From Syntrophales bacterium (GTDB taxonomy: Bacteria; Desulfobacterota; Syntrophia; Syntrophales; UBA5619), in NCBI GenBank assembly GCA_030654195.1, contig JAURXV010000037.1:1-61517 (forward strand): a DNA stretch of 61,517 bases, given 5' to 3'. The notes beneath the pieces are model-generated. The model saw nothing but the letters and a program-made list of their open reading frames with translations, was not told the origin of the DNA and did no database searches. Both the position numbers and the translations under genes were made by a program. The stretch's first letter is position 1. Each line of letters starts with the position of its first letter. Of the stretch, positions 39,133-54,720 are shown one piece after another.

Positions 39133-40791
39133 CTATACGCCGGTAAAATCGATCTGATGTGGGCTCAGTTCACGGCGGGCATAGTCCAGAGGAATCCCCT
39201 CCCTTTGAAACAGGGTAAAAAGGTCCGGATCGATGTGCCCGTCTTTCACCATCATCGCCAGGATATTCATGGCTTCGGAAAGGGTTTTCCCCTTTTGGTA
39301 GGGTCTGTCCTTGGCCGTCAGCGCCTCGAACACATCCGCCAGGGCCAGGATCCTGGACTGAAGGGAAAGCTGGGTGGCGTTGAGGCCTCTTGGATAGCCC
39401 CTGCCGTTCAGTGTTTCATGGTGGGCAGCCGCATAATCAGGAGCATGTCTCATCTTTTTCGGAAAGGGCAATTGAGAAAGAATCTTGTAGGTCATCGCGG
39501 CATGATTCTGGATGATATCCCTTTCCTTTGCAGACAGGGTCCCTTTGCGGATATTCAGGTTTTCAACCTCCTCGGGTAAAAGAAGAGGCTTCTTTTTCCC
39601 ATCCAACTCCCAGGTCCTCAGGGCGATCGTCCTGATCCTGTCCATCATCTCATCCGACATCAGTTCGCTTCCACGATTGGCCTCCGACAAAAACCGGAAT
39701 TCCTCCCGGAGGGTGGTTTCCAACTCATCATTCTCTTCGGTTGCCGCCGATTCGGGAAGGTTCTCCTTGTTCAGATTCCTTAGCATGGTCTGCAGTCTGT
39801 ACAATTCAAACCGGAGCCGCAGGAGCTCGATCCGGTCAAAAATGGTTTCCAACTTTGTCGCCTTGTCAACCACATACTCTGGTGTCGTAATCTTTCCCAC
39901 ATCATGGAGCCAGGCAGCGATCTGCAGTTCTTTAAGCTGATCGTCCGAAAACTTGTGATCCGCCAAGGGCCCCTCCGTCGTATCATTGATTTTGCGGGCA
40001 ATGTCCATCGTCAGGTCGGCCACGCGGCGGACATGACCCCCGGTATAGGGCGACTTTTCATCGATGGCGGTCGCAATAGCGCGGATGAAGGATTCCATCA
40101 GGGCTTCAAGGTCTTGAATGAGGCGATTGTTTGAAAGGGCGACTGCGGCCTGGGAGGCGAGGGATTCGGTCATTTCCTGGCATTCGGCAGAAAAGGAAAC
40201 AACCTCGCTGCGTTTTTCATCTCGTGCATTAAGCAACTGCAAAACGCCGATGATATCATTTTCATGGTTTTTCATCGGGACCACGAGCATCGATTTGGAG
40301 CGGTACCCCGTCTGGGCATCGAAATTTCTAGTCCCCTGGAAGTCAAAACCCTCCGCATCATAGACATCGGGGATATTGACGGTATTTCCGGTCAATGCGA
40401 CATAGGCGGAGACATTTCCGTGGTTGGACGAGCCATCGGCATTTTGCAGCCGGACCGGTTTCCAGGTGATCTTCCCCCCGGTTCCCCCCATTCGGACATC
40501 GAGGGTCTCCGTCTGCACAATGGCAAATTGCAGCTCGGTTTCATCGTCGGACATGATGTAGAGGGTACCGCCGTCGGCGCCGGTGAATTCCCTCGCTTCT
40601 TCGATGATCATTTCGAACAGACGCTCGATATTCCGCTCTGCGGAAAGCGCCGTACCGATCCGAGTCAGCCTGCGGATCTGTTTTAGTTGATTTTCGCTGA
40701 ATTTCCTGGTCTCAGCCTCACCGCACCTGTTGTGATGGTTGAGAGGCGTACTGCCCGCAGGACCGGGGAACTCTTTCCCCTTTCCGTCCAT
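39133..40791 (-). CDS. GAF plus HD-GYP cyclic dinucleotide phosphodiesterase
   Basis: GAF (NIPDVY...FD..TGYRSKSML.VP), YTGGH, LHDVGK, HHE...G.GYP, ADVFEALT. Confidence 0.88.
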   Translation of the reverse strand: MDGKGKEFPGPAGSTPLNHHNRCGEAETRKFSENQLKQIRRLTRIGTALSAERNIERLFEMIIEEAREFTGADGGTLYIMSDDETELQFAIVQTETLDVRMGGTGGKITWKPVRLQNADGSSNHGNVSAYVALTGNTVNIPDVYDAEGFDFQGTRNFDAQTGYRSKSMLVVPMKNHENDIIGVLQLLNARDEKRSEVVSFSAECQEMTESLASQAAVALSNNRLIQDLEALMESFIRAIATAIDEKSPYTGGHVRRVADLTMDIARKINDTTEGPLADHKFSDDQLKELQIAAWLHDVGKITTPEYVVDKATKLETIFDRIELLRLRFELYRLQTMLRNLNKENLPESAATEENDELETTLREEFRFLSEANRGSELMSDEMMDRIRTIALRTWELDGKKKPLLLPEEVENLNIRKGTLSAKERDIIQNHAAMTYKILSQLPFPKKMRHAPDYAAAHHETLNGRGYPRGLNATQLSLQSRILALADVFEALTAKDRPYQKGKTLSEAMNILAMMVKDGHIDPDLFTLFQREGIPLDYARRELSPHQIDFTGV

Positions 40792-40870: not shown

Positions 40871-41560
40871 TCAACGGATAATGATACGGAGGCGTTTACT
40901 TTCTAATTTTTTTTGAATGGCGGCAAATTCTTCAGTAGAATATGACAACTCAGACAAAAATTGATTATCCAGGGTTTTCTTGGGCATAAAGGGTTGCAGG
41001 ACATACAATTGCGCCTTCTTCAGCATTCTTGCGGTTGCAATCAGGTCTTCCTTGTCAAGCTGCGAACGGACGACGGTTGTACGGAATTCATGTTCGATTC
41101 CTGAAGATGCAATCAGTTCTATGCTTCTCAGGATCTTTGCGGTTTCAACATCGGCTTTTGCAATTTGTCCATATTTATGGAGGGGACCCTTGACGTCCAT
41201 GGCCAGATAGTCGACCCATCGTCCGCGGATCAACCTCTCCAGAATGGTCGGCTTCGATCCGTTGGTATCCACCTTGACGAGATACCCCATCTTTTTGATC
41301 TGCTGCAGAAATCTTTCCAAATCCTTCTGCAGCGTGGGCTCCCCGCCGGTCACGGTGACGGCTTCCAGCTTGCCCCGCCTCTTTTCCAGAAAAGAGAGCA
41401 CCTCCGTCTCGGGCAGAATCGGCCCGTATTGAGCGGGGTCGACCAGCTCCGGGTTGTGACAGTAGGGACAACGGAAGTTGCATCCCTGGGTAAAGACGAT
41501 GGCGCTGATTCGACCGGGGTAATCGATCAGCGAGATTTTCTGAAATCCCCCAATCCTCAT
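40871..41560 (-). CDS. nrdG: Anaerobic ribonucleotide reductase activating radical SAM protein
   Basis: SLIDYPG, GCNFRCPYCHN, TGGEPT, DTNG, EFRTT; directly after nrdD. Confidence 0.92.
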   Translation of the reverse strand: MRIGGFQKISLIDYPGRISAIVFTQGCNFRCPYCHNPELVDPAQYGPILPETEVLSFLEKRRGKLEAVTVTGGEPTLQKDLERFLQQIKKMGYLVKVDTNGSKPTILERLIRGRWVDYLAMDVKGPLHKYGQIAKADVETAKILRSIELIASSGIEHEFRTTVVRSQLDKEDLIATARMLKKAQLYVLQPFMPKKTLDNQFLSELSYSTEEFAAIQKKLESKRLRIIIR

Positions 41561-41564
41561 CTTA

Positions 41565-43655
41565 TTAAAACCTGTATTCTTTTCTGAGGTCGAACTCCGC
41601 TTGCTTTCCTTTGTTCCATTGCTTGACCGGCCTGAGATATCCCACCACACGGGAGTAGATCTCGCAGGCCTCTTCACAGGTCGGACAGGTCGCTACCTCC
41701 CCGTTCAGATAACCGTGCGATGGGCAGATGCTGAAGGTGGGGGTAAAGGTCAGGTAGGGAAGATGATAATGGGTGCAGATCTTCTTGATCAGGGTCTTCA
41801 CGGCCCGGGGATCGGAAATCCGCTCACCGGCAAAGGTGTGAAAAACCGTTCCGCCGGTGTACTTGCACTGGATCTCGTCCTGCAGATCGAGAGCCTCAAA
41901 GACGTCATCGGTATAGTTGACGGGAAGTTGCGTGGAATTCGTATAGAAGGGTTCCGCCTGTCTCGTCCGGCAATTTTCCTCATTGGCGCAGAGGATCTCC
42001 GGATATTTCTTCTTATCGATTCGGGCCAGACGATAGGAGGTTCCCTCCGCCGGCGTTGATTCCAGATTGTAATTGTTTCCCGTCTCCTTCTGGAATAGGA
42101 CCAGATGGTTGCGCATGAAATCGAGGACTTTTTTCGCAAACCGCTGCCCTTCCGGGGTGGTGATGTCCTGACCGAAGAGGTTCAAGCAGGCCTCATTCAT
42201 CCCCACAAGGCCGATGGTGGAAAAATGGTTCTTCCAGTATTCGCTGAACCGCTGCTTGACATTCCGGAGGTAGTGTTTCGTATAGGGATAGAGGTTCCCG
42301 TCGGTGAATTTCTCCAGCACCTTTCTCTTGACTTCAAGGCTCTCTTTGGCCGTGGCCATCAATTTCTCAAGCCGCCCCATGAACGCCTCTTCCGTATCGG
42401 AGAGATAACCGATTCGGGGCATATTGATGGTAATCACCCCGATGGAACCCGTCAAGGGATTCGAACCAAACAGCCCCCCTCCCCGTCTGTGCAGTTCCCG
42501 ATTGTCGATCCGCAGCCGGCAGCACATGCTTCTGGCGTCTTCCGGATCCATGTCCGAATTGATGAAATTGGAAAAATAGGGCACGCCATATTTTGCGGTC
42601 ATTTCCCAGAGGCCTTCGAATTTTGGGTCATCCCAGTTGAAATTCTTTGTGATGCTGTAGGTGGGGATCGGAAAGGTAAAAACGCGCCCCTTTGCATCGC
42701 CGTCGGCCATCACCTGAAGAAAGGCCTTGTTGAAAAGGTTCATCTCCTCCTGAAATTCCGCATAGGTCTCCTTCTGAGGTTCGCCGCCGACAATGACGTT
42801 CTTGTCGGCATAGTAGCGGGGCACCGTGATATCCAGCGTAACATTGGTAAAGGGCGTCTGGAAACCTACCCGGGTTGGGACATTGATGTTGAAGATGAAT
42901 TCCTGGAGCGCCTGCTGGATCTCCTGATAGCTCAGCTTGTCGTAACGGATAAAGGGGGCGAGCAGCGTGTCGAAATTGGAAAAGGCCTGCGCCCCGGCCG
43001 CCTCTCCCTGAAGGGTGTAGAAGAAATTGACCACCTGGCCTAAGGCGCTGCGGAGATGCTTGGCCGGTTTGCTCTCCACCTTGCCTGAGACGCCGCGGAA
43101 TCCCTCCATCAGAAGATCGAACAGATCCCAGCCCACGCAGTAGACCGAAAGCAGGCTGAGGTCATGGATATGGAAATCTCCCTCCGTATGCGCCCGACGG
43201 ATCTCCGGAGAATAGATCTCGTTGAGCCAGTAGACCTTGCTGACCTCGGAGGAGATGTAATTGTTCAGCCCCTGGAGGGAATAGTCCATATTGCTGTTTT
43301 CGTGAATCTTCCAATCCATCTTTTTGAGATACTGATCGACAAGATCCACCTCCATCTTGTTGGTGATTTCCCGGAGACGGGCATGCTGCTCGCGATAGAT
43401 AATGTAGGCCTTCGCCGTCTTTCGATACGATGAAGAGAGGAGAACCTCCTCCACGATGTCCTGAATTTCCTCAACCGTCGTGATCCGGCTGTCGAAGATC
43501 TTTTCCGCCAGATTCAGGACGCGGATGGTCAGTGTCTTTGCGACAGCATGATCAAATTCACCGCTTGCCGCGCCGGCCTTGGCGATGGCGCTGGTGATCT
43601 TCTCCGCGTTGAACTTCAGCAGGCGGCCGTCCCTCTTCTTGATTTTTGCGTGCAT
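41565..43655 (-). CDS. nrdD: Class III (anaerobic) ribonucleoside-triphosphate reductase with ATP cone
   Basis: IKKRDG ATP cone, SMCCRL, TPAEG, CPSHG...CPTC Zn site, YSRVVGYL glycyl radical motif. Confidence 0.95.
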   Translation of the reverse strand: MHAKIKKRDGRLLKFNAEKITSAIAKAGAASGEFDHAVAKTLTIRVLNLAEKIFDSRITTVEEIQDIVEEVLLSSSYRKTAKAYIIYREQHARLREITNKMEVDLVDQYLKKMDWKIHENSNMDYSLQGLNNYISSEVSKVYWLNEIYSPEIRRAHTEGDFHIHDLSLLSVYCVGWDLFDLLMEGFRGVSGKVESKPAKHLRSALGQVVNFFYTLQGEAAGAQAFSNFDTLLAPFIRYDKLSYQEIQQALQEFIFNINVPTRVGFQTPFTNVTLDITVPRYYADKNVIVGGEPQKETYAEFQEEMNLFNKAFLQVMADGDAKGRVFTFPIPTYSITKNFNWDDPKFEGLWEMTAKYGVPYFSNFINSDMDPEDARSMCCRLRIDNRELHRRGGGLFGSNPLTGSIGVITINMPRIGYLSDTEEAFMGRLEKLMATAKESLEVKRKVLEKFTDGNLYPYTKHYLRNVKQRFSEYWKNHFSTIGLVGMNEACLNLFGQDITTPEGQRFAKKVLDFMRNHLVLFQKETGNNYNLESTPAEGTSYRLARIDKKKYPEILCANEENCRTRQAEPFYTNSTQLPVNYTDDVFEALDLQDEIQCKYTGGTVFHTFAGERISDPRAVKTLIKKICTHYHLPYLTFTPTFSICPSHGYLNGEVATCPTCEEACEIYSRVVGYLRPVKQWNKGKQAEFDLRKEYRF

Positions 43656-43806: not shown

Positions 43807-43835
43807 TTGCCTTTCTAAGATCGGAATTGTATATT
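43807..43835 (+). promoter_or_regulatory. Putative sigma-70 promoter of the MeT1-like methyltransferase
   Basis: TTGCCT, 17 bp spacer, TATATT. Confidence 0.4.
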
Positions 43836-43883
43836 CTTCAAACGCTGCTGAAATCCATCCACCAGAAAGAAAGGCCGAGAGCA

Positions 43884-44552
43884 ATGGATGTCGATGAATT
43901 AAAGAGAATGCATTTCAAGGGCTTCATGGCCGAGGAGGAGGCCGTTCGTCTGTATGAACTGGCAAGGGAGGCTTCCGGCCGCGGCCCCTGCCTGGAGATC
44001 GGCAGTTATTGCGGCCGTTCGGCTGCCTATCTGGGGATGGGATGCAAAGAGAAAGGGGGAATCCTCTTTTCGCTCGACCATCATGAGGGTTCGGAGGAGC
44101 AGCAGCCCGGGCAGGAGTACTTCGATCCGGAGCTCCTGGATCCGGCTACGGGGCGAATAGATACCTTCCCCGCCTTCCGAAAAACGATCCGTAATCTTTC
44201 CCTTGAGGATACGGTCGTTCCGCTCGTCTCCCGTTCCGCAGTCGTCGCCCGCCTCTGGGCCACGCCGCTCAGCCTGATCTTCATCGATGGGGGCCACACC
44301 TTTGAGGCGACTTTCATCGATTACAGCGCCTGGATCTCACACCTCATTCCCGGCGGCTACCTGGCGATCCATGACATCTTCCCCGATCCAAAAAAGGGGG
44401 GCCAGGCGCCCTGGTGTGTCTACCGTATGGCCCTCGATTCCGGTCTTTTCGAGGAGCTTCCGCTGACGGGGACGCTGGGCGTTCTGCGGAGGGCTGCCAC
44501 CGGCCTTCTCACCGACCGCTCAAGAACGTGTTGGGCCAATATCCGCGGCTGA
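43884..44552 (+). CDS. Class I SAM methyltransferase (Methyltransf_24), MMP 1-O-methyltransferase MeT1-like
   Basis: KGFM..EE, LEIGSYCGRS, DHH.GSEE.QPG.EY.DP, FIDGGH, HDIFPDP..GGQAP. Confidence 0.8.
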   Translation: MDVDELKRMHFKGFMAEEEAVRLYELAREASGRGPCLEIGSYCGRSAAYLGMGCKEKGGILFSLDHHEGSEEQQPGQEYFDPELLDPATGRIDTFPAFRKTIRNLSLEDTVVPLVSRSAVVARLWATPLSLIFIDGGHTFEATFIDYSAWISHLIPGGYLAIHDIFPDPKKGGQAPWCVYRMALDSGLFEELPLTGTLGVLRRAATGLLTDRSRTCWANIRG

Positions 44553-46160
44553 TTCCGATTTCATCGGCGCATGCTCGACGCGGTTGTTGTGCGTCCAGTG
44601 CCAGAGGCATTCTCCACCGGATATCACGGGGCGGACGTACCCTTTCTCGACGAGTCCCCGGATGGTTCGGCAAACCATTCCACCATCGACGCCTGTGGCT
44701 TTCACGATCCGCCGGCAGAGCTCTTCCTGGAGAAGCTCCGTACTTTCGGTAGAATCCGGCGCCGGAATGGCGCCCCACTTTTCGATCAGATCTTCGGATA
44801 GCAGGCGATAGACCAGCTTCATCCGGAAATGGCCTTCAACCTGCATGTCGACCCCCGGTGCATTGGTTCGGTCATGGTATCCCTGAACCATCTCCTCCCA
44901 GACCTTTGCGATCTCCGATTCGAAATCCGCTACGAACCGGTTCATCTCCTCCGGAGAAAGGGCGGAGGTCCGAACGATGGCGCTGTTCGCGTCATACCGG
45001 GTCCAGTCGTCGGTCAGGATTTCCAGATCGTACTTTTTCACCTCCTCGCGGACCGTCGTACCCGGAAAGGGGGCGAGGAAATGATAGCCGTACAACGAGC
45101 CGAGCCCGGCGGCGAACTCCTCCGTTTCCCGGAGGGTCTCACATGTCTCCCCGGGCAGGCCGACGATGAAGGAGGTGTGGGCAATGATCCCCGCTTCCCG
45201 GCAGAGGGAAACCGCATGCCGGACCTGATCCCGGGTGATCCCCTTGCGGATCAGCTTCAGCATCTCCGGATTTCCCGTCTCAACGCCGAAGCTCACGCTG
45301 TCGCAGCCCGACTCGCGCATCAGCTTCAGGGTTTCCAGGTCGACGGTATTCACGCGGGCAAAGGCGCTCCACCCAAACCGGAGGCCGCGGCGGATGATCT
45401 CGTCGCAAACCTCCTTTACCTTCCCCCGGCTGGATACGAACAGGTCGTCCGCCACGTTGATCCGATCGATGCCGTAGGAGAGGATCTCCTCGATCTCGTC
45501 CACAACCAGCGAAGGATTTCTCAGACGGATCTTCTTCCCGACCATGCGGCGTCCGAGGCAGAAGATACAGGAATAGGGACAGCCGCGGGAGGTTATGATG
45601 CTGATCGGATAACCGAGGGCCTGATAACGGGACAGCGGGAGGAGATGACGCGCCGGGATAGGCAGGGTATCGAGATCGTCGATGAAGGGCTGCGGCTCAT
45701 TGATGACGACACGGCCGTTACGCCGGAAGACCAGCCCGCGGATCTCTCCCCATTTTTCGGGATTTAGATCCTCGGCCATCAATTCGGCTATGGTTCTCTC
45801 CCCTTCCCCGGCCACAATCAGATCGATCCCGGGATAGTCGTTCAGCGTCCGTTCGGCGGAGAAGGATACATGCGGTCCTCCCATCAGGGTGATCAGCGAT
45901 GGTCGATGCCGCTTGGCCTCACAAACGATCTCCGCAGCGCCCGGGAAATTGAGCGTTACGGAGCTCCCGCAAAGAACATCAGGGCGGAAGGCGTCGATCT
46001 GCGCCCGCAGTTTTTCCGGCGTGTACCGGCTGACGATATAATCGAAGATCCGCACCTCGGCGCCGGCCGTCTCGAAGGCGGCGGCGACATAAGTGACGCC
46101 GAGCGGCGGCGCGGGCGCCTCTTCAAGGGGATAGGGCGGTGCGACAATGGCAACTCTCAT
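44520..46160 (-). CDS. Cobalamin-binding radical SAM protein (class B methyltransferase-like)
   Basis: PPLG..YVAA, GGPH, GEGE, SRGCPYSCIFC (CX3CX2C), GVETG, FIVGLPGET, PFPGT. Confidence 0.88.
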   Translation of the reverse strand: MRVAIVAPPYPLEEAPAPPLGVTYVAAAFETAGAEVRIFDYIVSRYTPEKLRAQIDAFRPDVLCGSSVTLNFPGAAEIVCEAKRHRPSLITLMGGPHVSFSAERTLNDYPGIDLIVAGEGERTIAELMAEDLNPEKWGEIRGLVFRRNGRVVINEPQPFIDDLDTLPIPARHLLPLSRYQALGYPISIITSRGCPYSCIFCLGRRMVGKKIRLRNPSLVVDEIEEILSYGIDRINVADDLFVSSRGKVKEVCDEIIRRGLRFGWSAFARVNTVDLETLKLMRESGCDSVSFGVETGNPEMLKLIRKGITRDQVRHAVSLCREAGIIAHTSFIVGLPGETCETLRETEEFAAGLGSLYGYHFLAPFPGTTVREEVKKYDLEILTDDWTRYDANSAIVRTSALSPEEMNRFVADFESEIAKVWEEMVQGYHDRTNAPGVDMQVEGHFRMKLVYRLLSEDLIEKWGAIPAPDSTESTELLQEELCRRIVKATGVDGGMVCRTIRGLVEKGYVRPVISGGECLWHWTHNNRVEHAPMKSESAADIGPTRS

Positions 46161-46182
46161 CGGCAGTTCTCCGGTATACAAA

Positions 46183-46914
46183 TCAATCCCCCTTTCTGGG
46201 AAAGATGACCGACCGGAGCCAGCCCAGCCAACTGTTGTCCTTCATGAAATGACGGTCGATCTCTTCGAATTGGGCGGCGAGCGCCCCGGGATCGGCCAGC
46301 CAGTTGGCGCGCGTCTTCACCGGCCTGTCGGCATCGAGATATTTTACGACGGCTGCCGGATTTCCCGCGGCGACTGCATTGGCCGGGATATCACGGACCA
46401 CCACGGCGCCGGCGCCGATGATGCTGTTCTCTCCGATCCTGACCCCCTTGCAGACAATGGCGCCGTCCCCGATCCAGACCTTGTCTCCGATATGGACGGG
46501 AAGGGTATGGCCGATCGGAAGGCTCCGGTCGTAAACGCCATGCCAGTCCGAATCGGTCACAAAGGCCCCCTGGGCCAGCATGCAACTCTCCCCGATCACG
46601 ATCTCCGTGGCGGCGCTGATCCGGACTCCGGGACAGATGAGACAGCAGTTTCCAATCTCGATTCTCCCCTCCCCTCCCAGCGCGGACCAGACGGTCAGCC
46701 GCACTTTCCGGTCCGGCGTGGCGATCACGGTGGCATGGCTCCCCAGTGTAACCGGGCCGCCGAAGATCTCGACATGCCAGGGTTTCATGAAGGTGCACCC
46801 CCGGCCGAGACCCTCAAAATGGGGGCGGAGAAATCGCTCCGCGTACCACTTCTGAAAATTCAGATCGAGGCGTTTGAGGATGTAGGGGCGATGATCTCTC
46901 CGCACGGAAATCAA
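46183..46914 (-). CDS. Hexapeptide-repeat (LbH) O-acyltransferase
   Basis: [LIV]GXXXX repeats, TDSDWH, VWIG, AGNPA. Confidence 0.85.
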   Translation of the reverse strand: MISVRRDHRPYILKRLDLNFQKWYAERFLRPHFEGLGRGCTFMKPWHVEIFGGPVTLGSHATVIATPDRKVRLTVWSALGGEGRIEIGNCCLICPGVRISAATEIVIGESCMLAQGAFVTDSDWHGVYDRSLPIGHTLPVHIGDKVWIGDGAIVCKGVRIGENSIIGAGAVVVRDIPANAVAAGNPAAVVKYLDADRPVKTRANWLADPGALAAQFEEIDRHFMKDNSWLGWLRSVIFPRKGD

Positions 46915-48020
46915 CCTCCGGATCTTTCAAGGGCGGGTGTGCGCCGATCGAAGACCATACCCGCAAACGATTCTTTGCCGAACCTGAGATGGGGATTCCT
47001 CTCCCAGAAGCCATGGCTGAAGAGCCGCCCGGCCGGCGTGATGTCGTGGAGGGCGTCGTAAGCGAGAAGCACCGCCGCCGCCGTCCAGGAGGTTTTTTCC
47101 TCCGGCCAGATCACGCCGTCCGGAAAAGTCACCCCCATCCAGTAGGCGCCGTCATCAAATCTCTTGTCGCAGATCCAGTTGAAGACGATAGCGGCCCTAT
47201 CGCGATCCCCCATCGCTGCCAAGGTCAAGACCAGCTCCGCTGCCTCGGCCGTGGTCACCCACGGCTGATCGCAGACACAACGGACCCCCCAATCAGGAAC
47301 AACGAACTTTTCCCAGGAGCGGTCGATTCGGTTCCGGGCTTCGGCGCCCTGAACGGCGCCGCAGAGGACAGGGTAGTACCAGTCCATCGAATATCGCGCC
47401 TTCATCATGTTGAACAGGCTGGGGCGATGGCGGATCGACTCTCCGAGCTTATTCAGAGCCGATTGCCAGTCCGAACGTTTTTTCCCCAGAAGGGAAGCAA
47501 CGGCGATCGCACACTTGAGGCTCATATAGACCGAGCTGGAACCGGTCAGCAGGGCCATCGGATCGACCACCCCTTCGCTGTTCCTGGCCCAGGCGATTTC
47601 GCCGGTGGCCGCCTGGAGGCCGACGGCATAATCGATTCCCGCCTTCAATGTCGGCCACAAACGCCTTAGGAAGCGCATCTCCCGCGTGATCAGGTAATGA
47701 TGGTAAACCCCGACGGCGATGTAGGACGAGACGTTGCTGTCCCGGGTTCTGTCCTCCGGCACACTGTTCCGGGTTGCCGACCACCAGCTCCCGTCAGGCA
47801 GTTGCGTCGATTCCATCCAGCGATAGGCCAGCTCCGCCTCCCGGAGGCGTCCGGCGACGCTGAGTCCCATCGCGCTTTCCACGTGATCCCAAGGGTCGGT
47901 CTTGCCGCCGACGGACCAGGGGATTTCTCCATTCGGTTTCTGCACGCCCGCGATAAAGTCCGCGATGGCGTCCACTTCGACTGGGGATTGGATAAGACCT
48001 TGCGAAAGGGGAAATTCCAT
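46911..48020 (-). CDS. 'Prenyltransferase/squalene oxidase repeat'-type (alpha/alpha)6 protein, MmpH-like glycoside hydrolase candidate
   Basis: Q..NGEIPW..GG.TDPWDHVE.AM, QLPDGSW, YSMDWYYPVL.G, GVRCV.D.PWVT.AE, WPEEKTSWT. Confidence 0.65.
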   Translation of the reverse strand: MEFPLSQGLIQSPVEVDAIADFIAGVQKPNGEIPWSVGGKTDPWDHVESAMGLSVAGRLREAELAYRWMESTQLPDGSWWSATRNSVPEDRTRDSNVSSYIAVGVYHHYLITREMRFLRRLWPTLKAGIDYAVGLQAATGEIAWARNSEGVVDPMALLTGSSSVYMSLKCAIAVASLLGKKRSDWQSALNKLGESIRHRPSLFNMMKARYSMDWYYPVLCGAVQGAEARNRIDRSWEKFVVPDWGVRCVCDQPWVTTAEAAELVLTLAAMGDRDRAAIVFNWICDKRFDDGAYWMGVTFPDGVIWPEEKTSWTAAAVLLAYDALHDITPAGRLFSHGFWERNPHLRFGKESFAGMVFDRRTPALERSGG

Positions 48021-48727
48021 CAGCGGTATCCTTTTTTCAGATAAAAAATAATGCTCTTGCCGATCAGCGGATTCAGAAGCCGATCCATCCAGGCCGTCAG
48101 CGGGGGATGCCGGATGATGTCCCATTCGAGGAACTTCCGGTACGCCTTGACCAGCGGAAAGGTCTCATTCTTGTGTCCCACGAGGCACCGGAGCCACCAG
48201 TAGGGGGCATGGAGACCATGACGGTAGCGGATCCGCCAGCAACGTACGCCTGCCGCCTCCAGAAGGCTCATCAATTCCCCCTTCTTATAGATCCGGATGT
48301 GGCCGCCGGGCTCGCGGTGATACGCCCGGGAAATCGTCCAGCAGACCCGCTCCGGCAGAAAGCGCGGAACCGTGACGACCAGATCCGCTCCCGGCTTGAG
48401 GACGCGGACGAGTTCCGCGACGGCGGTTCGATTGTCCTTGATGTGCTCCAGGACCTCGGAACAGATGACGACGTCAAAGCTGCCGTCGGCAAAGGGCAGT
48501 TTCGTGACATCGGCCTGCGCCACAAGCCAGCGCCCTTTCTGTTCCCTGGCCATCAGCGAGAGAAATCCCTTCGCCTTGCCCAGATCGTCCCGGTTCAGAT
48601 CCACACCGGCGACATCGACGCCCGGCGTCCGGAATGACTCGCAGAGATGTCTTCCGCTTCCGCATCCGGCATCGAGAACCCGCATTCCCGCCCGCAGCGG
48701 GATCTGCCTAAAGTCGACCGTAAGCAT
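48020..48727 (-). CDS. Class I SAM methyltransferase (Methyltransf_11), MeT3-like candidate
   Basis: MLTVDF, VLDAGCGSGRH, LPF.DGSFD, SEVLEH, GGHIRIY, H.LHAPYWWL.C, GKS. Confidence 0.8.
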   Translation of the reverse strand: MLTVDFRQIPLRAGMRVLDAGCGSGRHLCESFRTPGVDVAGVDLNRDDLGKAKGFLSLMAREQKGRWLVAQADVTKLPFADGSFDVVICSEVLEHIKDNRTAVAELVRVLKPGADLVVTVPRFLPERVCWTISRAYHREPGGHIRIYKKGELMSLLEAAGVRCWRIRYRHGLHAPYWWLRCLVGHKNETFPLVKAYRKFLEWDIIRHPPLTAWMDRLLNPLIGKSIIFYLKKGYR

Positions 48728-49988
48728 CGATCGCCTCCCGGTAGACCTCGACGGTTTTCATTGCGGCGTGACGCCAGGTCAGCGAATTACTCACCCTCGC
48801 TAGCCCCGCCTCACCGAGCCTCATGCGTTTTTCCGGATCATTCAGCAGGGCCGCGATGGCATCCCGCAGGGCCGCTGCGTCCCCCGGCGGCACAAGGAGT
48901 CCGGCATCCCCCACCACCTCGGGGAGTGCGCCGCCCGACGTACTAATCACCGGCACGCCGCAGGCCATGGCCTCGCCGGCCGGCATGCCGAATCCTTCAT
49001 AGAGTGAGGGGATGACGGCTATTGTCGCCTCGGCGTAATAGCGGGCAAATTCCCGATCCGCAATCCGGCCGGTGAAACGGATCGCATCGCCAAGTGAAAG
49101 TTCCGCGACCAGACGTTCGATCACTCCGTTCTCCTTCGGTTTCCCGATGACGACGACGCGGACCGCCCTTTCCCGGCGGATCTTCGCGACTGCCTCTAAG
49201 AGATAGCGCAGTCCCTTGAGCGGCGTGTCGGCGCTGTTCGTCACCAGGATCAGGTCGTCCGCCCGTCTCACGCCGTCAAGCGGATAAAAGCAGTCCGTGT
49301 TGATCCCGTTCGGAACAACGCGGAACCTTTCGGCGGGCAGGTGGAATTCCCGGCCGATGTCTCTCTTCGAACATTCGGATACGGTGATGATATTCGATAT
49401 CCGCCGGGACACCCGCTTCTGCATCGCCAGAAACGCGTACCAGCGTCTCACCTTCATCCGGCGGAGCCAGCTTCCTGCCGCCGCGATTTCCGTATCCCGG
49501 TCGACGGTGATCGGATGGTGGATGGTGGCCACCGTCGGATAGCCGCCCGCGGCGATGCCGAGAAGGCCGTAGGAGAGACTCTGGTTGTCGTGGATGATAT
49601 CATATCCGTTCCGGCCCCTTAGCAGATGGTTGCGGGCGCGGAATCCGAAGGTGAAGGGTTCCGGGAATCCCCCGGAACACATGCTGAGGAACTCAAACTG
49701 GTTGAGCGGCGAGGAAAGATCCCGGATATTCGTGACCTTGAAGAGATGTTCCGGGTTGTAGAGGTCCAGACCGGGGATTTTGTGAAGGGCGATGCCTTCA
49801 TCGAGCTCCGGATAAGGGGGACCCGACAGGACATCGACCTCGTGGCCGAACTCCCGGAGCGCCCGGCTCAGGTATTTGACGTACACTCCCTGCCCCCCGC
49901 AGGTCGGATTCCCCCGGTAGGTCATCAGGCAGATCCTGAGCGGACCGTCGGCCTTTCGTTTCCAAAGATGATCCGAATCATGCGCCAT
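48708..49988 (-). CDS. GT4 (GT-B) glycosyltransferase, ManT-like candidate
   Basis: YRGNP.CGGQGVY, SGPPYP, GGFPEP.TFG, HDNQSL, TIHHP, PSLYEGFG.PA.EAMACG (EX7E). Confidence 0.85.
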   Translation of the reverse strand: MAHDSDHLWKRKADGPLRICLMTYRGNPTCGGQGVYVKYLSRALREFGHEVDVLSGPPYPELDEGIALHKIPGLDLYNPEHLFKVTNIRDLSSPLNQFEFLSMCSGGFPEPFTFGFRARNHLLRGRNGYDIIHDNQSLSYGLLGIAAGGYPTVATIHHPITVDRDTEIAAAGSWLRRMKVRRWYAFLAMQKRVSRRISNIITVSECSKRDIGREFHLPAERFRVVPNGINTDCFYPLDGVRRADDLILVTNSADTPLKGLRYLLEAVAKIRRERAVRVVVIGKPKENGVIERLVAELSLGDAIRFTGRIADREFARYYAEATIAVIPSLYEGFGMPAGEAMACGVPVISTSGGALPEVVGDAGLLVPPGDAAALRDAIAALLNDPEKRMRLGEAGLARVSNSLTWRHAAMKTVEVYREAIDAYGRL

Positions 49989-50258
49989 GAACGTCAATCA
50001 CCTTTTCCTGCGAAGTCAATATCCGCCTCCCGCTGATACGTCGATTCTGATGGATATTTTTACAGATTTTCTGACCGACCGTCACTCCCCGGGCAGTGTT
50101 GCCGTTCGGCCGGCGGATGGGGATAAATACATCCGAAGTGTTGAATTGGCAAACAATATTTTGATGAACCCGTTAAAAAGTCGCAAGAGCGTTGAATAGG
50201 CGTTCGGAAAACCCGATACCATTTGACAGACCAGACCGCCTGTGGAATAAGAAACGCC

Positions 50259-51251
50259 ATGAAAATACCGAAACTGATCGTTTTTGATATGGACGGCGTC
50301 CTGATCGACGTCTCCGGCTCCTACCGAGAGACCGCTCGAAAAACGGCGAGGCTTTTTTTCGATGGGGCAAGGGGGTTCAGGAAACTGCCCGATCCGCTCT
50401 TCCCGCTGACGGACCTCGCCGAACTCAAACAGACCGGCAACCTGAACAACGACTGGGACCTGACCGCCCTGACCCTCCATCTCCTTTTTGCACTGGTCAA
50501 AACTCCCTCCGGCCGGTTATCGGCGGATGATTCCACCGGCCCTGAAGAGACGATTCACCGCTGCGACGTGTCGGATCTCGCCGATTTCCTGAACGCCTCT
50601 TCCCGCCCGCTGATGGAGCTTCTGGATCGTTACGGCAGGCGACACGACCCCTTCGTGACAAGCTGTTATCAGGGCGACGTCGATACCGGCAACCGAATCA
50701 AACGGATCTTTCAGGAGATCTATCTCGGCCCGTCCCTCTTCACGGCGCTGCATGGCGGACAGCCCCGCTTCTACCGAGGAGAAGGGCTGATCCATCGGGA
50801 AAGTCTGCTGATGGACCCGACCCTGCTTGCAGCTCTATCCAGGAATCACATCCTGGCCATCGCCACCGGCCGCCCGCGGGCGGAGGCCGATTTTCCGCTG
50901 GACCGTTTCGACCTGCGAAAATATTTTCAACTCGTGATCACGCTGGATGATTGCTCGCGGGAGGAAGAGAGGATCTTTACCGAGAGAGGCGAACGGATCT
51001 CTCTGAACAAACCCGATCCCTACATGCTCGACCGGATCCCCCGCCTGATCGGCAAAGGGTTCAGCGACTGTTACTACCTGGGAGACATGCCCGACGACAT
51101 GCAGGCGGCCCGGTTGTCCAAAACCGGTTACCGGGGGGTGGGGGTTGTTCTTTCCTCCGCCGATCGGGAAAATCTGCGCAAAGCGATGTTGCAGGCCGGG
51201 GCCGAACAGATCATCGACGATTACGCCGCCCTGCCCGGAATTTTCAGTTGA
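50259..51251 (+). CDS. HAD superfamily hydrolase with large cap (TIGR01548-like)
   Basis: FDMDGVLIDV..SYR, NNDW, ATGRP, KPDP, GDMPDD. Confidence 0.8.
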   Translation: MKIPKLIVFDMDGVLIDVSGSYRETARKTARLFFDGARGFRKLPDPLFPLTDLAELKQTGNLNNDWDLTALTLHLLFALVKTPSGRLSADDSTGPEETIHRCDVSDLADFLNASSRPLMELLDRYGRRHDPFVTSCYQGDVDTGNRIKRIFQEIYLGPSLFTALHGGQPRFYRGEGLIHRESLLMDPTLLAALSRNHILAIATGRPRAEADFPLDRFDLRKYFQLVITLDDCSREEERIFTERGERISLNKPDPYMLDRIPRLIGKGFSDCYYLGDMPDDMQAARLSKTGYRGVGVVLSSADRENLRKAMLQAGAEQIIDDYAALPGIFS

Positions 51252-51492: not shown

Positions 51493-52149
51493 TCAATAGG
51501 CCCAGTGAAAGATCCCCTTGCCGATAATGTTCATGATGATGGGAACGCTATAGATCAGACCGATCGCCCCAATTTTACGGCGGTCCGTTTTCATGCCGAG
51601 GACGAGGATGGTCGCCACGTAGAAATGGAAGTACCCGAAGAGGAAGATCAGCCAGACGCCGCCGAAGGAGAGATTCCAGAAGGGGTATTCCCAGACGAGG
51701 TGGCCGCCGATGTTCAGCATACATTCCACGAAAACGCAGAAGACCGAATAGGCGATCGCCCAGAACCAGCGGTTCGGAACTCCCAGGATCCTGACTTCCT
51801 TTTTTTCTTCAAGCGTATGGTAGTAGATGATCCCGGAGATCGCGAACATGAACATGATCTCGATGTTCCATCCGATCATGGTTCTCAAGGCCGTGTCGCC
51901 GGGGGTCGTCCAGAAGGCGGAATGGTTGGTGAAATGGAAGACCCAGCCGTTCCAGGTCTCGTTGAAGAAATCCATGCCGAAAACGGTAAGGCCGGCGAAG
52001 ATGGCGTTCCAGTTCCCGGTTTCTCGCGCTTTCTTCATTTCCGTCACGTAGATGTAGGTGATGATGGCCAGCAGAGGGATGATGTACCACTTGATCATGG
52101 TAAGGTCCCAAAGTCCGTTCAGGGCAGTCTGTGAAGCTTGCGTCGGCAT
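51493..52149 (-). CDS. Conserved-looking multi-pass membrane protein of unknown function
   Basis: About six aromatic-rich hydrophobic segments, MDFFNE.WN, IGWNIEI.FMF; AGGAGG RBS. Confidence 0.7.
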   Translation of the reverse strand: MPTQASQTALNGLWDLTMIKWYIIPLLAIITYIYVTEMKKARETGNWNAIFAGLTVFGMDFFNETWNGWVFHFTNHSAFWTTPGDTALRTMIGWNIEIMFMFAISGIIYYHTLEEKKEVRILGVPNRWFWAIAYSVFCVFVECMLNIGGHLVWEYPFWNLSFGGVWLIFLFGYFHFYVATILVLGMKTDRRKIGAIGLIYSVPIIMNIIGKGIFHWAY

Positions 52150-52299: not shown

Positions 52300-54720
52300 C
52301 TAAATGAAAATCCTGCTACGCTCCGGATCGTACGGGGGCTTCGAAAGACGTGTGGCAGGGATCGCCTCCCGATACACCTCAATGGCAAAGCCGCCCGAAT
52401 CATCCGCATCCGCGGCAGACAGGTAACCTAAAGCGATCGTCTTCCCCACCGTATGGCCATAGCCGCCGCTGGAGACCGCCCCGACGACCTTTTCCCGACG
52501 GGTGATCGTCTCTCCGCCGGTAAGCAGGATCGGCCGGTCAGTATCCAGCGTGAAGGTGCAGAGCTTCCACTTCGGTCCCCCCTGCTTGATCTTCAAAAGC
52601 GCCTCCCGACCCTTGAAGGGTCCCTTGTCGAGATGGACGGCAAAACCGATCCCGGCGTCGTAGGGACTGTAGTCCGGAGAGACCTCGGCGCCCCAGTAGC
52701 AGTACCCCTTCTCCAGCCGGAGCGAGTCGATCGCCCGGTATCCGGCGTTGCGGATGCCGAGGTCCCGGCCGGCCTCCCAGAGGCTCTCGTACAGATGGGG
52801 GGCATATTCCGGCGGCATGTATAGCTCGTAGCCCAGTTCGCCGATGTAGGTCACCCGGATCGCCAGCACCGGGGCATAGCCGATGACGACCTCCCGGCAT
52901 TGACCAAAGGCGAACCCTTCGTTGCTGAAGTCGTCGTCGGAGAGACGCATCAGGAGTTCCCGGGAGAGGGGCCCGCAGACGTTGATCATCGCGAAAGAGG
53001 AAGTCACATCACGAAGCGAAACCGAACCGTCCTTCGGCAGATGTCTTTTAAGCCACATGAAATCGTGGACACCAAAGGCGGTGCCGGTGATCACAAAGAA
53101 GCGGTCTTTTGCCAGGCGCGAGATGGTGATGTCCGCCTCGATCCCGCCCCGGTCGTTGCAGAGCTGGGTATAGACAGTTGATCCCACGGGCCTGTCCACA
53201 TTGCCCGCCGCCATTTCGTTCAGAAAGGGCAGCGTTCCGGATCCGGCCACCTCGAACTTGCTGAACGAGGATTGGTCGATCAGGACCACCGCCTCCCGGG
53301 CCGCCCGATGCTCGGCGGCCACGTGGTCGAACCAGTTCGGAATCCCGAAGGTGGGTACGTCCTCGGGCGCCACCCCTGGCGGGGCGAACCAGTTGGCCCT
53401 TTCCCAGCCGTATTTCGCGCCATAAACGGCCCCGTTTGCCTTGAGCAAATAGTAGAGCGGAGAGCGCCGCACTCCCCGGGCCGAATCGTGCTCCTCATTA
53501 GGCCAGGAGATGGTGTAATGTTTGCCGTAGATCTCCTTGGTCCGTTCGACATTGTACCGGAGACTCCGGTGATACGGGCCGAAGCGGCGGATATCGAGGG
53601 GCCAGATGTTCAGGCTCGGTTCCCCCTCTGCGATCCATTCGGCCACCATCCGCCCGGCCCCGCCGCCGGCGGCGATCCCGAAGGCATTGAAGCCGACGGC
53701 GACAAAACAATTTTCCAGCTCCGGCGCCGGTCCCAGCATGCAGTTGCCGTCGGGGGTGAATGCCTCCGGTCCGTTGATTAGGCGCGCGATCCCGGCCGTA
53801 CCGAGGCAGGGCGTCCGCTTGACGGCTGCCTGGGAAATGGACTCGAAATGATCGAAATCCGGCTCTAACAGTTCCTGGGTGAAGCCCTGGGGAATTCCAT
53901 GGATCGCCCAGGGGATGCCGTCCCGTTCGTAACCGCCCATGACGAGCCCCCCGACCTCCTCCTTGTAGTAGAGAAGGCTGTCCTTGTCCCGCAGCGTCGG
54001 CAGACCCGGCGGCAGCCCCTCGATCGCCTCGGTCACCAGGTACTGGTGCTGAAACGGAACCAGAGGGATATTGACGCCCATCATCCGGCCGATCTCGCGG
54101 CCCCACATCCCCGCCGCATTGACGACCGTTTCGCACCGGATCGTCCCCCGATCGGTCACGACGGCGCTAATGCGGTTGTCCCGGATTTCGAAACCGGTGA
54201 CGCGGGTTTTCTGTTCCACCGTGGCGCCCCGGTTCACCGCCCCTTTGGCCAGCGCCATGGTGAGTCCGCTCGGATCCGCCTGGCCGTCGGAGGGCATGAA
54301 GGCCGCGCCGATGATCCCTTCCATATCGAGGATCGGGAAGATCTTCAGCGCCTCGGAAGGCGTGATCATGTGCATTTCCAAGCCGAAACTGCGTGCCGTG
54401 GTGGCCCCTTTCTTCAGTTCGAAGAGCCGCTCCTCCGTGCAGGCCAGATGGAGACAGCCGCAACGCTTCCAGCCGGTGGTCAGTCCCGTTTCCGCCTCCA
54501 GCGTCTCGTAGAGGCTGACGCTGTGCTGAAGCATCCTCGTTACATTCCGGTGGGAACGGAGCTGTCCCACGAGGCCCGCCGCATGCCAGGTGGAACCGCT
54601 GGTCAACTCGCCCTTTTCAAGAATGAGCACATCCTTCCATCCCAGTTTTGTCAGATGATAGGCAATGCTGCATCCCACGATGCCGCCGCCGATAATGACA
54701 ACCTGTGCACTGTCGCGCAT
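52300..54720 (-). CDS. GcvT-family FAD-dependent oxidoreductase (dimethylglycine/sarcosine dehydrogenase-like)
   Basis: GGGIVG, GSTWHAAG, NGPEAFTPDG, GWERANWF, TYIGELGYE, LRLEKGY. Confidence 0.9.
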   Translation of the reverse strand: MRDSAQVVIIGGGIVGCSIAYHLTKLGWKDVLILEKGELTSGSTWHAAGLVGQLRSHRNVTRMLQHSVSLYETLEAETGLTTGWKRCGCLHLACTEERLFELKKGATTARSFGLEMHMITPSEALKIFPILDMEGIIGAAFMPSDGQADPSGLTMALAKGAVNRGATVEQKTRVTGFEIRDNRISAVVTDRGTIRCETVVNAAGMWGREIGRMMGVNIPLVPFQHQYLVTEAIEGLPPGLPTLRDKDSLLYYKEEVGGLVMGGYERDGIPWAIHGIPQGFTQELLEPDFDHFESISQAAVKRTPCLGTAGIARLINGPEAFTPDGNCMLGPAPELENCFVAVGFNAFGIAAGGGAGRMVAEWIAEGEPSLNIWPLDIRRFGPYHRSLRYNVERTKEIYGKHYTISWPNEEHDSARGVRRSPLYYLLKANGAVYGAKYGWERANWFAPPGVAPEDVPTFGIPNWFDHVAAEHRAAREAVVLIDQSSFSKFEVAGSGTLPFLNEMAAGNVDRPVGSTVYTQLCNDRGGIEADITISRLAKDRFFVITGTAFGVHDFMWLKRHLPKDGSVSLRDVTSSFAMINVCGPLSRELLMRLSDDDFSNEGFAFGQCREVVIGYAPVLAIRVTYIGELGYELYMPPEYAPHLYESLWEAGRDLGIRNAGYRAIDSLRLEKGYCYWGAEVSPDYSPYDAGIGFAVHLDKGPFKGREALLKIKQGGPKWKLCTFTLDTDRPILLTGGETITRREKVVGAVSSGGYGHTVGKTIALGYLSAADADDSGGFAIEVYREAIPATRLSKPPYDPERSRIFI

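Follow-up and report, generated by a model that had tools for sequence, protein, structure and literature searches.

Organization of the gene cluster

The window, i.e., the whole 61.5-kb contig analyzed here (61,517 nucleotides), comes from a member of the order Syntrophales, an anaerobe from groundwater. Five genes on the minus strand and one convergent gene on the plus strand were found between positions 43827 and 49997, and are listed below by their open reading frames (ORFs).

43827-44552 (likely start, ATG at 43884), plus strand: Methyltransf_24 ORF (MeT1-like), 241 aa as ORF
44520-46181, minus strand: B12 radical SAM ORF, 553 aa
46183-46914, minus strand: hexapeptide acetyltransferase ORF, 243 aa
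46911-48125 (likely true start, ATG at 48020; 46911..48020), minus strand: (alpha/alpha)6 ORF (MmpH-like), 404 aa as ORF and 369 aa from the ATG
48020-48727, minus strand: class I SAM methyltransferase ORF (MeT3-like), 235 aa
48708-49997 (ATG at 49988), minus strand: GT4 ORF (ManT-like), 429 aa as ORF

By ORF coordinates, each minus-strand gene either overlaps its neighbor or is separated from it by 1 nt. The TGATG at 48020 comprises the stop codon of the MeT3-like gene and the start codon of the MmpH-like gene, and the 3' end of the radical SAM gene is overlapped for 33 nt by the convergent MeT1-like gene. This tight packing of GT4, methyltransferase, (alpha/alpha)6, acyltransferase and B12 radical SAM genes, together with the convergent methyltransferase gene, had been noticed in an earlier, sequence-only reading of the window, and was confirmed by the ORFs, the Pfam assignments and a match to PDB entry 7QSJ (see below). 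Four RNA libraries yielded contigs, 92-99% alike, that covered parts of the MeT1-like, radical SAM, acetyltransferase and MmpH-like genes; this is a weak hint that the cluster is transcribed, as such libraries can contain DNA.

Orthologues of the mycobacterial MMP enzymes, their distribution and origin

The sequence-only reading likened four of the six genes to those for ManT, MeT3, MmpH and MeT1, which make 3-O-methylmannose polysaccharides (MMPs) in mycobacteria, and had set non-orthology to these enzymes as the ground for rejecting the idea. In the reciprocal searches that we ran, all four genes, each present as a single copy, were the best hits of genes of Mycolicibacterium, Streptomyces and Halioglobus (four donor loci) and vice versa. 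Three of the four proteins matched the cognate M. hassiacum enzymes (ManT, MmpH and MeT1) in PDB far better than any other entry, and the gene order was the same, so the likeness stands.

The ManT-like protein bore Glycos_transf_1 (1e-36) and Glyco_transf_4 (1e-26) in Pfam and matched PDB entry 7QSG from M. hassiacum with an E-value of 1.5e-112, against 2.4e-33 for the next best chain. The accessible part of PMC9883506 gives 7QSG as ManT and 7QSJ as MmpH. G34, K261, E334 and E342 of the window protein, as well as the Asp contacting guanine, correspond to G15, K240, E313, E321 and D293 of ManT, and all five are identical. The gene was also the reciprocal best hit of the actinobacterial and Halioglobus cluster genes. 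These data support the product of 48708..49997 as a ManT-like GT4, predicted to be an alpha-(1->4)-mannosyltransferase.

No Pfam family was assigned to the MmpH-like protein. We regard it as an (alpha/alpha)6 protein because it matched the solved structure of M. hassiacum MmpH (7QSJ; E-value of 7.8e-101) and, weakly, the oligosaccharide-amylase family TIGR01577 (4.4e-10). D42, D45 and E259, numbered from the ATG at 48020 (D77, D80 and E294 in the ORF), correspond to the catalytic D47, D50 and E262 of MmpH; W44, N96, E262 and W312 of the window protein are likewise kept, and its E259 and E262 did not vary in an alignment of 56 sequences. The gene was found once in the genome and was a reciprocal best hit. 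The product of 46911..48020 is thereby supported as an MmpH-like (alpha/alpha)6 protein, putatively an endo-alpha-(1->4)-mannosidase.

The MeT3-like protein was assigned to Methyltransf_23/11 in Pfam (about 1e-22), had no close solved structure in PDB, and shared 42-50% identity over ~236 aa with the product of the mycobacterial gene that lies between manT and mmpH. Its reciprocal best hits scored 206-217 bits, a threefold margin over the 60-65 bits of the next match. These matches support the product of 48020..48727 as a MeT3-like class I SAM methyltransferase and putative 3-O-methyltransferase; mycobacterial MeT3 is itself just a putative 3-O-methyltransferase in the accessible part of the published account. 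The MeT1-like protein (Methyltransf_24, 3.5e-19 in Pfam) matched a sole PDB sequence, 6G7D/6G80/6H40, with an E-value of 2.7e-61. The four motifs given as shared with MeT1 in the sequence-only reading all occur in the 241-aa protein, where they align to 6G7D, and 32 positions were at least 98% conserved among 96 sequences from three phyla. The gene was a reciprocal best hit and present as a single copy in the genome, supporting the product of 43884..44552 as a MeT1-like protein, presumably a 1-O-methyltransferase.

The order ManT, MeT3, MmpH and convergent MeT1, on the same strands, is common to the window and 120 mycobacterial loci; among the latter, loci with room for the gene in question possessed MeT3 in 109 of 109, ManT in 97 of 98 and MeT1 in 30 of 32 cases. 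The window thus agrees with the MMP cluster of M. hassiacum and M. smegmatis, as described in the accessible part of PMC9883506, in the four orthologues, their order and orientation, in the conserved catalytic residues of MmpH and ManT, and in the predicted solubility of the proteins. On the other hand, the window has two extra genes between mmpH and meT1, for the acetyltransferase and the B12 radical SAM protein, neither of which was found in any of the actinobacterial loci examined. The host also differs from the mycobacterial MMP carriers, being a member of a strictly anaerobic-type lineage of Thermodesulfobacteriota.

The cluster is not peculiar to the source genome: Syntrophales and other Thermodesulfobacteriota commonly carry it, and it is present also in Gammaproteobacteria, in which complete sets were found in a motif sample. 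Of 80 Syntrophales loci, nearly all retained ManT, MeT3, MmpH and the acetyltransferase. Where there was room, MeT3 and ManT were constantly detected (73/73 and 65/65, respectively), while MeT1 was detected in 31 of 56 loci and not found within the fetched flank of the remaining 25. When 401 genomes were sampled from the phylum containing the window, 52 had a relative of MmpH, compared with 68 of 401 from Actinomycetota. We found no report of a non-actinobacterial MMP in the literature searched. As the cluster is not peculiar to this genome, what is new here is the wide non-actinobacterial range and the two extra tailoring genes.

We weighed the chance that the cluster is actinobacterial DNA that was mis-binned, mis-assembled or very recently transferred into this genome. 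Across the cluster, GC content climbs from about 0.52 to about 0.61, and the samples contained public MAGs that appeared to be mislabelled, namely an 'Acidobacteria' MAG nested inside Ilumatobacteraceae and a 3.1-kb 'Gammaproteobacteria' contig with a mycobacterial-type motif. Nevertheless, GC reaches at least 0.60 elsewhere in the window, and the cluster is internal to the contig, where anaerobic ribonucleotide reductase and Etf genes flank it (Pfam); the NrdD and NrdG flanks recur in several related Syntrophales loci. Identity to any actinobacterial copy was 42-50% at most. In addition, the trees recovered phylum-coherent clades, with the window sequences placed in a Desulfobacterota clade with a support of 100 and apart from Actinomycetota, a pattern that speaks for long-standing residence and against recent transfer or contamination. 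We thus reject a foreign origin of this kind, the probability of which is next to negligible.

The acetyltransferase and the B12 radical SAM protein

The product of 46183..46914 bears hexapeptide repeats (Hexapep PF00132, 1.5e-13 in Pfam), and its nearest PDB matches were chains of maltose and galactoside O-acetyltransferases (E-values of about 5e-18). By its repeats and core similarity, it is a hexapeptide-repeat (LbH family) enzyme of the sugar O-acetyltransferase type. The alignment contained a conserved block of D121, D123, W124 and H125, the last of which we take to be the catalytic His of the hexapeptide family. Of 76 Syntrophales loci with room, 75 had the gene 3' of MmpH, and in a Microbulbifer locus a gene of 50% identity also lies beside the cluster. 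No homologue was found in 88 mycobacterial loci with room.

An acetylated MMP (AMMP) was reported from Streptomyces griseus (Harris and Gray, 1977, as cited in the accessible part of PMC9883506), giving a precedent for the O-acetylated MMP predicted from the acetyltransferase gene inside the operon. Nevertheless, the other actinobacterial loci with room, Streptomyces-titled or of high GC, comprised ManT, MeT3 and MmpH and lacked a homologue of the window acetyltransferase (0/20), implying that acetylation in Syntrophales, if any, would be by a different enzyme. Acetylated MMP has been reported from no lineage other than that of the Streptomyces-type loci; in one Streptomyces locus, the gap held just an Amidase_3 gene and ORFs without a Pfam family.

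The product of 44520..46181 combines an N-terminal B12-binding domain (PF02310, 1.5e-24) with a radical SAM core (PF04055, 6.3e-26), in which CPYSCIFC (CxxxCxxC) at residues 201-208 was invariant in 74 sequences; on this domain content, it is a class B radical SAM protein. Both features are shared with class B enzymes such as QCMT/MgmA (9CCB), CysS, TokK, TsrM and GenK, its nearest solved relatives; its neighbors in PDB were AprD4, which was the best hit, 9CCB (QCMT), CysS, TsrM, TokK and OxsB. AprD4 is a dehydratase and non-methylating; CysS extends an O-methyl group. The review PMC12931638, in its accessible part, describes most characterized class B members as methylating unactivated carbons, lists CysS among iterative methyltransferases, and contains no polysaccharide-tailoring member that we could find. 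All 35 NCBIfam matches of the window protein were far below the cut-offs (the best, BchE, at 210 bits vs 481), which places it outside the curated equivalogs (BchE, HpnJ, PhpK, HpnR, QCMT and others).

Among loci with room, 55 of 63 from Syntrophales had this gene, compared with none of 57 from mycobacteria. In the phylum sample, orthologues of at least 52% identity were detected in 37 of 51 other MmpH-positive and 0 of 349 MmpH-negative genomes, counts in which kin genomes are not independent of each other; paralogues of 37-48% identity are present in MmpH-negative genomes. In four loci, a radical SAM gene of 40-45% identity lies beside the four MMP genes in other positions.

Predicted product and its possible role

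We consider it likely that the cluster is an operon for a cytoplasmic MMP of the mycobacterial type, with two added tailoring enzymes. A ManC-like guanylyltransferase encoded in the genome (E-value of 7e-99) could supply the substrate, and we count it in favor of this proposal. By homology to the published mycobacterial pathway, ManT would transfer alpha-(1->4)-mannose from GDP-mannose onto oligomannoside primers, MeT3 would 3-O-methylate the added units with SAM, MeT1 would cap the reducing end by 1-O-methylation, and MmpH would cut mature chains internally into primers, such that the polymer may seed its own replication. The hexapeptide transferase may then O-acetylate some mannose hydroxyls with acetyl-CoA, and the B12 radical SAM enzyme may methylate an unactivated carbon, either in the polymer itself or in its methyl or acetyl substituents, and thereby raise the hydrophobicity of the polymer. 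The most likely product would be an acetylated, further alkylated MMP. The mycobacterial 6-O-methylglucose lipopolysaccharide (MGLP) shows that one polymer can carry both methylation and short acyl groups, albeit MGLP differs from MMP in sugar, linkage and enzymes; the sources, as far as accessible, describe it as cytoplasmic, polymethylated, acylated and proposed to sequester fatty acyl-CoA.

GT4 proteins, WbbJ/WcaF-type sugar O-acetyltransferases and methyltransferases are common in surface-polysaccharide loci, and a membrane protein is predicted at 51493-52149, 1.5 kb upstream, as if the cluster made a glycan for export or for the cell surface (capsule, LPS side chain or glycolipid) and not a polymer of the cytoplasm. 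However, by Pfam there is no flippase, ABC exporter, polyprenyl-phosphate transferase or polymerase among the six genes, and their products have no transmembrane-like segments. The membrane ORF was matched in just 3 of 80 loci (33-35% identity), and the substrate of the closest solved homologues is a cytoplasmic polymer in the accessible part of their description. A surface glycan is thus very improbable.

Alternatively, the genes could be true orthologues that make a short methylated manno-oligosaccharide, or a glycan linked or substituted differently, for use as a compatible solute, carbon store or stress protectant instead of a polymer that binds acyl chains. With just 42-50% identity to the characterized enzymes, acceptor or donor specificity could have drifted; MeT1 adjoins the cluster in only 31 of the 56 Syntrophales loci, and the presence of extra tailoring genes suggests that the product differs chemically. 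In mycobacteria, moreover, the acyl-CoA role is itself unproven: according to the accessible part of the source, the mmpH knockout merely grew more slowly at 15 C, a cold-sensitivity rather than a lipid defect. On the other hand, the full four-gene set is kept, chain-recycling hydrolase included, as are the catalytic and sugar-binding residues of MmpH and the guanine-contacting Asp of ManT. We regard such a product as improbable, though less so than a surface glycan.

Returning to the cytoplasmic MMP, we infer, as did the sequence-only reading, that the source organism probably makes a methylated glycan, possibly with a role in buffering acyl-CoA: the soluble polymer may take up long acyl chains, as acyl-CoA or fatty acids, in a bacterium living on acyl-CoA chemistry. 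As Syntrophales carry the gene set of mycobacteria and their relatives, MMP-type polymers are probably not confined to the latter. A broader proposal, which we put forward as rather doubtful, is that MMPs are an old and widespread bacterial device for long acyl or alkyl chains, and that in the anaerobic Desulfobacterota lineage the hydrophobicity of the polymer is raised further by O-acetylation and by a new kind of B12 radical SAM chemistry acting on a polysaccharide. If true, the radical SAM enzyme could turn O-methyl or acetyl substituents into larger alkyl or acyl ones by CysS-like extension, or C-methylate the sugar. MMPs would then be no actinobacterial speciality, their carriers including syntrophic degraders of fatty acids, aromatic acids and alkanes (Syntrophales, Smithella) and marine Gammaproteobacteria.

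The cluster and the match of its core proteins to the MMP enzymes

A methylmannose polysaccharide (MMP)-like biosynthetic cluster with a product possibly buffering acyl-CoAs had been proposed at 43884-49988 by the sequence-only reading. Six ORFs were confirmed there, and the proposed borders (43884 and 49988) fall on the first ATG of each outer gene.

ORFs of the cluster
48708-49997, minus strand: GT4 glycosyltransferase, ManT-like, 429 aa (Pfam Glycos_transf_1 / Glyco_transf_4)
48020-48727, minus strand: class I SAM methyltransferase, MeT3-like, 235 aa (Pfam)
46911-48125, minus strand: MmpH-like ORF, 404 aa (no Pfam domain)
46183-46914, minus strand: hexapeptide-repeat transferase, 243 aa (Pfam)
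44520-46181, minus strand: radical SAM protein, 553 aa (Pfam B12-binding and Radical_SAM)
43827-44552, plus strand: Methyltransf_24 protein, MeT1-like, 241 aa (Pfam)

By the ORF coordinates, the minus-strand genes overlap or lie 1 nt apart. A TGATG at 48020 is common to the stop codon of MeT3 and an internal ATG of the 404-aa ORF and is preceded by AAAGGA a few bases upstream; thus, MmpH most likely starts at 48020 (369 aa). None of the six proteins contains a transmembrane-like stretch. A scan for consensus promoters and terminators gave no excess over shuffled sequences (3 promoter-like sites vs. 2.1 expected; 4 terminator-like sites vs. 5.9 expected). The GC content is 0.60-0.62 across 44001-50000 vs. 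0.52-0.53 in the preceding 6 kb, which we do not regard as clear evidence of an island because similar values occur elsewhere in the window.

The MMP enzymes MmpH and ManT of M. hassiacum correspond to PDB 7QSJ and 7QSG, respectively, in the parts of PMC9883506 consulted. The Pfam-less protein matched 7QSJ, entitled 'Methylmannose polysaccharide hydrolase (MmpH)', with an E-value of 7.8e-101, and the GT4 protein matched 7QSG with 1.5e-112 (2.4e-33 for the next chain). For the 241-aa protein, a single PDB sequence was matched (6G7D/6G80/6H40; E 2.7e-61, residues 30-224), and all four MeT1 motifs named in the earlier reading are present. With solved homologues at E <1e-60, the fold question is already answered. 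For the 235-aa methyltransferase, the PDB offers no close relative (best match MitM, E 1.2e-13); the protein shares 42-50% identity over ~236 residues with the mycobacterial gene at the MeT3 position. When the genes of Mycolicibacterium agri, M. peregrinum, one Streptomyces, and one Halioglobus locus were searched back against the whole genome, the window's ManT, MeT3, MmpH, and MeT1 were the best matches with wide margins (for MeT3, 206-217 bits for the window gene vs. 60-65 bits); MmpH, MeT1, and the acetyltransferase each occur once in the genome. Both the reciprocal best hits and collinearity identify the four genes as MMP orthologues. The MMP-cluster interpretation thus finds support at the orthology level, while the product and its buffering of acyl chains are what we infer from there.

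The active sites agree with this assignment. PMC9883506, in the parts consulted, names Asp47 and Asp50 (acid candidates), Glu262 (base), and Trp49, Asn101, Glu265, and Trp315 (lining) for MmpH, and Gly15, Lys240, Glu313, Glu321, and the guanine-contacting Asp293 for ManT; in the alignments to 7QSJ and 7QSG, the window proteins carry the same residue at every one of these positions. When 56 MmpH sequences from several phyla were aligned (numbered from the ATG at 48020), both site glutamates and Trp44 were invariant, the first catalytic Asp was conserved in 55 of the 56, and the second was D in 48, including the window protein, and N in 8. For MeT1, 32 positions are at least 98% conserved across 96 sequences. 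NCBIfam has no model for MmpH, and its relatives in the ESM Atlas bear only automatic 'prenyltransferase' names, with Actinomycetota as the commonest taxon (a lead rather than evidence). Since public annotations say 'prenyltransferase' and NCBIfam lacks a model, the MmpH family is invisible in genome annotation.

Synteny, taxonomic spread, and phylogeny

MMP and its enzymes are presented, in the portions of the literature consulted, as a trait of mycobacteria and related Actinobacteria and studied mainly for the physiology of nontuberculous mycobacteria. In the searched literature on methylmannose/MMP, including searches with Syntrophus, Smithella, Syntrophales, and Deltaproteobacteria, the matches listed treated MMP in mycobacteria or other actinobacteria only, and no report of non-actinobacterial MMP clusters was found among them. 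A set of 120 loci was collected with a motif from the 7QSJ alignment, nearly all of them titled Mycobacterium, Mycolicibacterium, or Actinomycetota. Their ManT, MeT3, and MmpH lie on one strand with MeT1 convergent, the same order as in the window; among the loci with room for the gene, MeT3 was present in 109/109, ManT in 97/98, and MeT1 in 30/32, and an MmpH match of sufficient length was missing in 4 of the 120.

The species-representative genome collection yielded 583 MmpH-like relatives. The best 80 of the 583 are 58-95% identical to the window protein and titled exclusively Syntrophaceae, Syntrophales, Smithella, Syntrophobacterales, Thermodesulfobacteriota, or old 'delta/Proteobacteria'; where these best 80 loci leave room, they carry MeT3 (73/73), ManT (65/65), MeT1 (31/56), the acetyltransferase (75/76), and the radical SAM gene (55/63). 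In evenly drawn genomes of the window's phylum, its own genome included, an MmpH match with E <= 1e-20 was detected in 52 of 401 (40 of 340 high-quality ones), and 11 of 13 genomes of the window's order were positive. An equal-sized sample of Actinomycetota gave 68 of 401, or 62 of 395 without six positives flagged as unpublished, on which nothing else in this analysis depends. A scan with a motif shared by all MmpH sequences returned at least 120 rows, and 116 new loci among the matches listed were sorted by title: 83 Actinomycetota (many Acidimicrobiia and Streptomyces), 16 Gammaproteobacteria (Halioglobus, Haliea, Spongiibacteraceae, Zhongshania, Cellvibrionaceae, SAR86, Microbulbifer, and Pseudomonadales), 12 Thermodesulfobacteriota, 2 Alphaproteobacteria, and one each of Acidobacteriota, Chloroflexota, and unclassified. 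Among the matches listed, MeT3 adjoins MmpH in all 16 gammaproteobacterial loci, ManT was found in 13 (all of those whose 8-kb block reaches it), and MeT1 in at least 10. Complete ManT-MeT3-MmpH(-MeT1) sets were seen in marine Gammaproteobacteria such as Zhongshania aliphaticivorans (L326), Halioglobus (L332), and Spongiibacteraceae (L344; loci L289-L386). Several of these marine bacteria are known as hydrocarbon or lipid degraders, a lifestyle that would be in keeping with the handling of acyl chains. A cultured strain may exist for Zhongshania aliphaticivorans, a named species whose record here is titled isolate.

The trees of concatenated ManT, MeT3, and MmpH (quick method, LG+G4, unrooted and drawn at the midpoint) recovered three clades with a support of 100 each, namely the main Desulfobacterota clade including the window, a clade of Gamma- and Alphaproteobacteria, and Actinomycetota. 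The window's phylum also includes two genomes on long branches, bearing the four genes only, which were placed near the base of the tree, albeit with an unsure position. The grouping by phylum points to a long residence of the cluster in each phylum and argues against contamination or recent transfer. Two loci deviate from their titles: the cluster of a MAG titled Acidobacteria (L272) is nested within Ilumatobacteraceae (Actinomycetota) sequences, and the mycobacterial-type motif occurs on a 3.1-kb contig from a MAG with the title Gammaproteobacteria (L152). Binning errors or recent transfers probably account for both.

Groundwater metagenome runs from at least three studies contain DNA near-identical to the cluster, and one of them may be the source. 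In four RNA libraries from three studies, contigs that are 92-99% alike match parts of MmpH, the acetyltransferase, the radical SAM gene, and MeT1. They leave the MeT3 and ManT part almost uncovered, albeit such contigs cannot show absence. As RNA libraries may also contain DNA, these contigs hint weakly at transcription in close relatives.

The acetyltransferase and the B12 radical SAM enzyme

The two genes between mmpH and meT1 are absent from the mycobacterial loci with room for them (0/88 for the acetyltransferase; 0/57 for the radical SAM gene) and from the 19-kb regions of 20 further actinobacterial genomes (0/20 each). In the window's phylum, the make-up of the cluster is modular. Among 20 regions fetched from this phylum, the window's six-gene form was found in four, the four genes with a radical SAM gene (40-45% identity) in another position and no acetyltransferase in four, the four genes only in three (one ending at a contig edge before MeT1), an MmpH-acetyltransferase pair only in seven, and an intermediate form in two. 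The pairs stand alone among unrelated neighbours in Desulfobacteria-type genomes (L203, L204, L208, L209, L210, L213, and L214; also L310, L348, L372, and L385). The possibility that such a pair serves a different function was rejected, as ManT (52-60% identity) is encoded elsewhere in the genome in five of five pair-type genomes, which indicates split systems. The hydrolase-acetyltransferase link appears tighter than the hydrolase-synthase link. One Microbulbifer locus also possesses the acetyltransferase (50% identity). Leaving aside the window's own genome, radical SAM orthologues with at least 52% identity were found in 37 of the 51 other MmpH-positive and none of the 349 MmpH-negative genomes in the phylum sample, a co-occurrence among non-independent kin rather than a statistical test; paralogues with 37-48% identity are present in MmpH-negative genomes.

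In the PDB, maltose and galactoside O-acetyltransferases come closest to the acetyltransferase (E ~5e-18), which also resembles, albeit below the cut-offs, the WbbJ/WcaF-type polysaccharide acetyltransferases of NCBIfam. The natural reading of these similarities would be sugar O-acetylation with acetyl-CoA. Acetylated MMP (AMMP) is known from Streptomyces griseus according to the parts of PMC9883506 consulted, but Streptomyces-type loci have no homologue of the window acetyltransferase. In one Streptomyces mmpH-meT1 gap searched for an acetyltransferase that could explain AMMP, only an Amidase_3 gene and Pfam-less ORFs were found.

The radical SAM protein combines a CxxxCxxC motif with a B12-binding domain and falls below every NCBIfam cut-off. 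Its neighbours among the solved structures are AprD4 (core only), 9CCB (MCR glutamine C-methyltransferase), CysS, TsrM, TokK, and OxsB. As described in the parts of the review PMC12931638 consulted, most characterised members of this class methylate C or P, in some cases iteratively, a minority perform other chemistry, and no enzyme acting on a polysaccharide is noted there. We favour, albeit with fairly low confidence, a methylation of the polymer or its methyl/acetyl substituents at an unactivated carbon; alternatively, it may catalyse a dehydration or rearrangement. Residues ~430-553 form a C-terminal extension of ~120 residues past the Pfam domains, and alignments to relatives extend to residue ~530-545.

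Genomic surroundings and implications

Genes around the cluster
39133-40791, minus strand: GAF and HD-domain protein (PF13487 HD_5; Pfam), flanking
40871-43655, minus strand: anaerobic ribonucleotide reductase NrdD with activase (Pfam), flanking
50223-51251, plus strand: HAD-type hydrolase (TIGR01548-like, below cut-off), divergent from the cluster
52300-54720, minus strand: FAD oxidoreductase fused to a GcvT aminomethyltransferase domain, 806 aa (Pfam; dimethylglycine/sarcosine dehydrogenase type)
54776-55735 and 55758-56528, minus strand: two ORFs resembling electron-transfer flavoprotein subunits (reading of translations)

The NrdD/activase and GAF-HD flanks recur in several related loci, the ribonucleotide reductase genes in closer relatives only. 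The HAD-type hydrolase was rejected as a cluster member, being kept beside the cluster in the closest relatives only; a lineage-specific accessory role, for instance as a phosphatase, is conceivable. The 806-aa oxidoreductase directly adjoins the two Etf-like ORFs, an unusual pairing for an anaerobe-type genome. Elsewhere in the genome, a ManC-like mannose-1-phosphate guanylyltransferase is present (E 7e-99 against the N-terminal portion of TIGR01479, a bifunctional model whose cut-off is not reached), and thus a supply of GDP-mannose is plausible.

Altogether, judged from sequence comparison, the cluster is best filed as a conserved four-gene MMP core in a different phylum and lifestyle, accompanied by two putative lineage-specific tailoring genes; an MMP product and an acyl-chain-buffering role would be predicted from this assignment. 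Complete, collinear, and well-conserved clusters occur in approximately one in eight sampled Thermodesulfobacteriota genomes and also in Gammaproteobacteria. If the carriers make MMP, its function calls for an explanation that applies to all these organisms rather than one based on the mycobacterial envelope, and the acetyltransferase and radical SAM reactions would represent new tailoring steps for an intracellular polysaccharide. The energy metabolism of syntrophic anaerobes runs on acyl-CoA intermediates, and MMP, if made, would be a candidate acyl-chain buffer for them.
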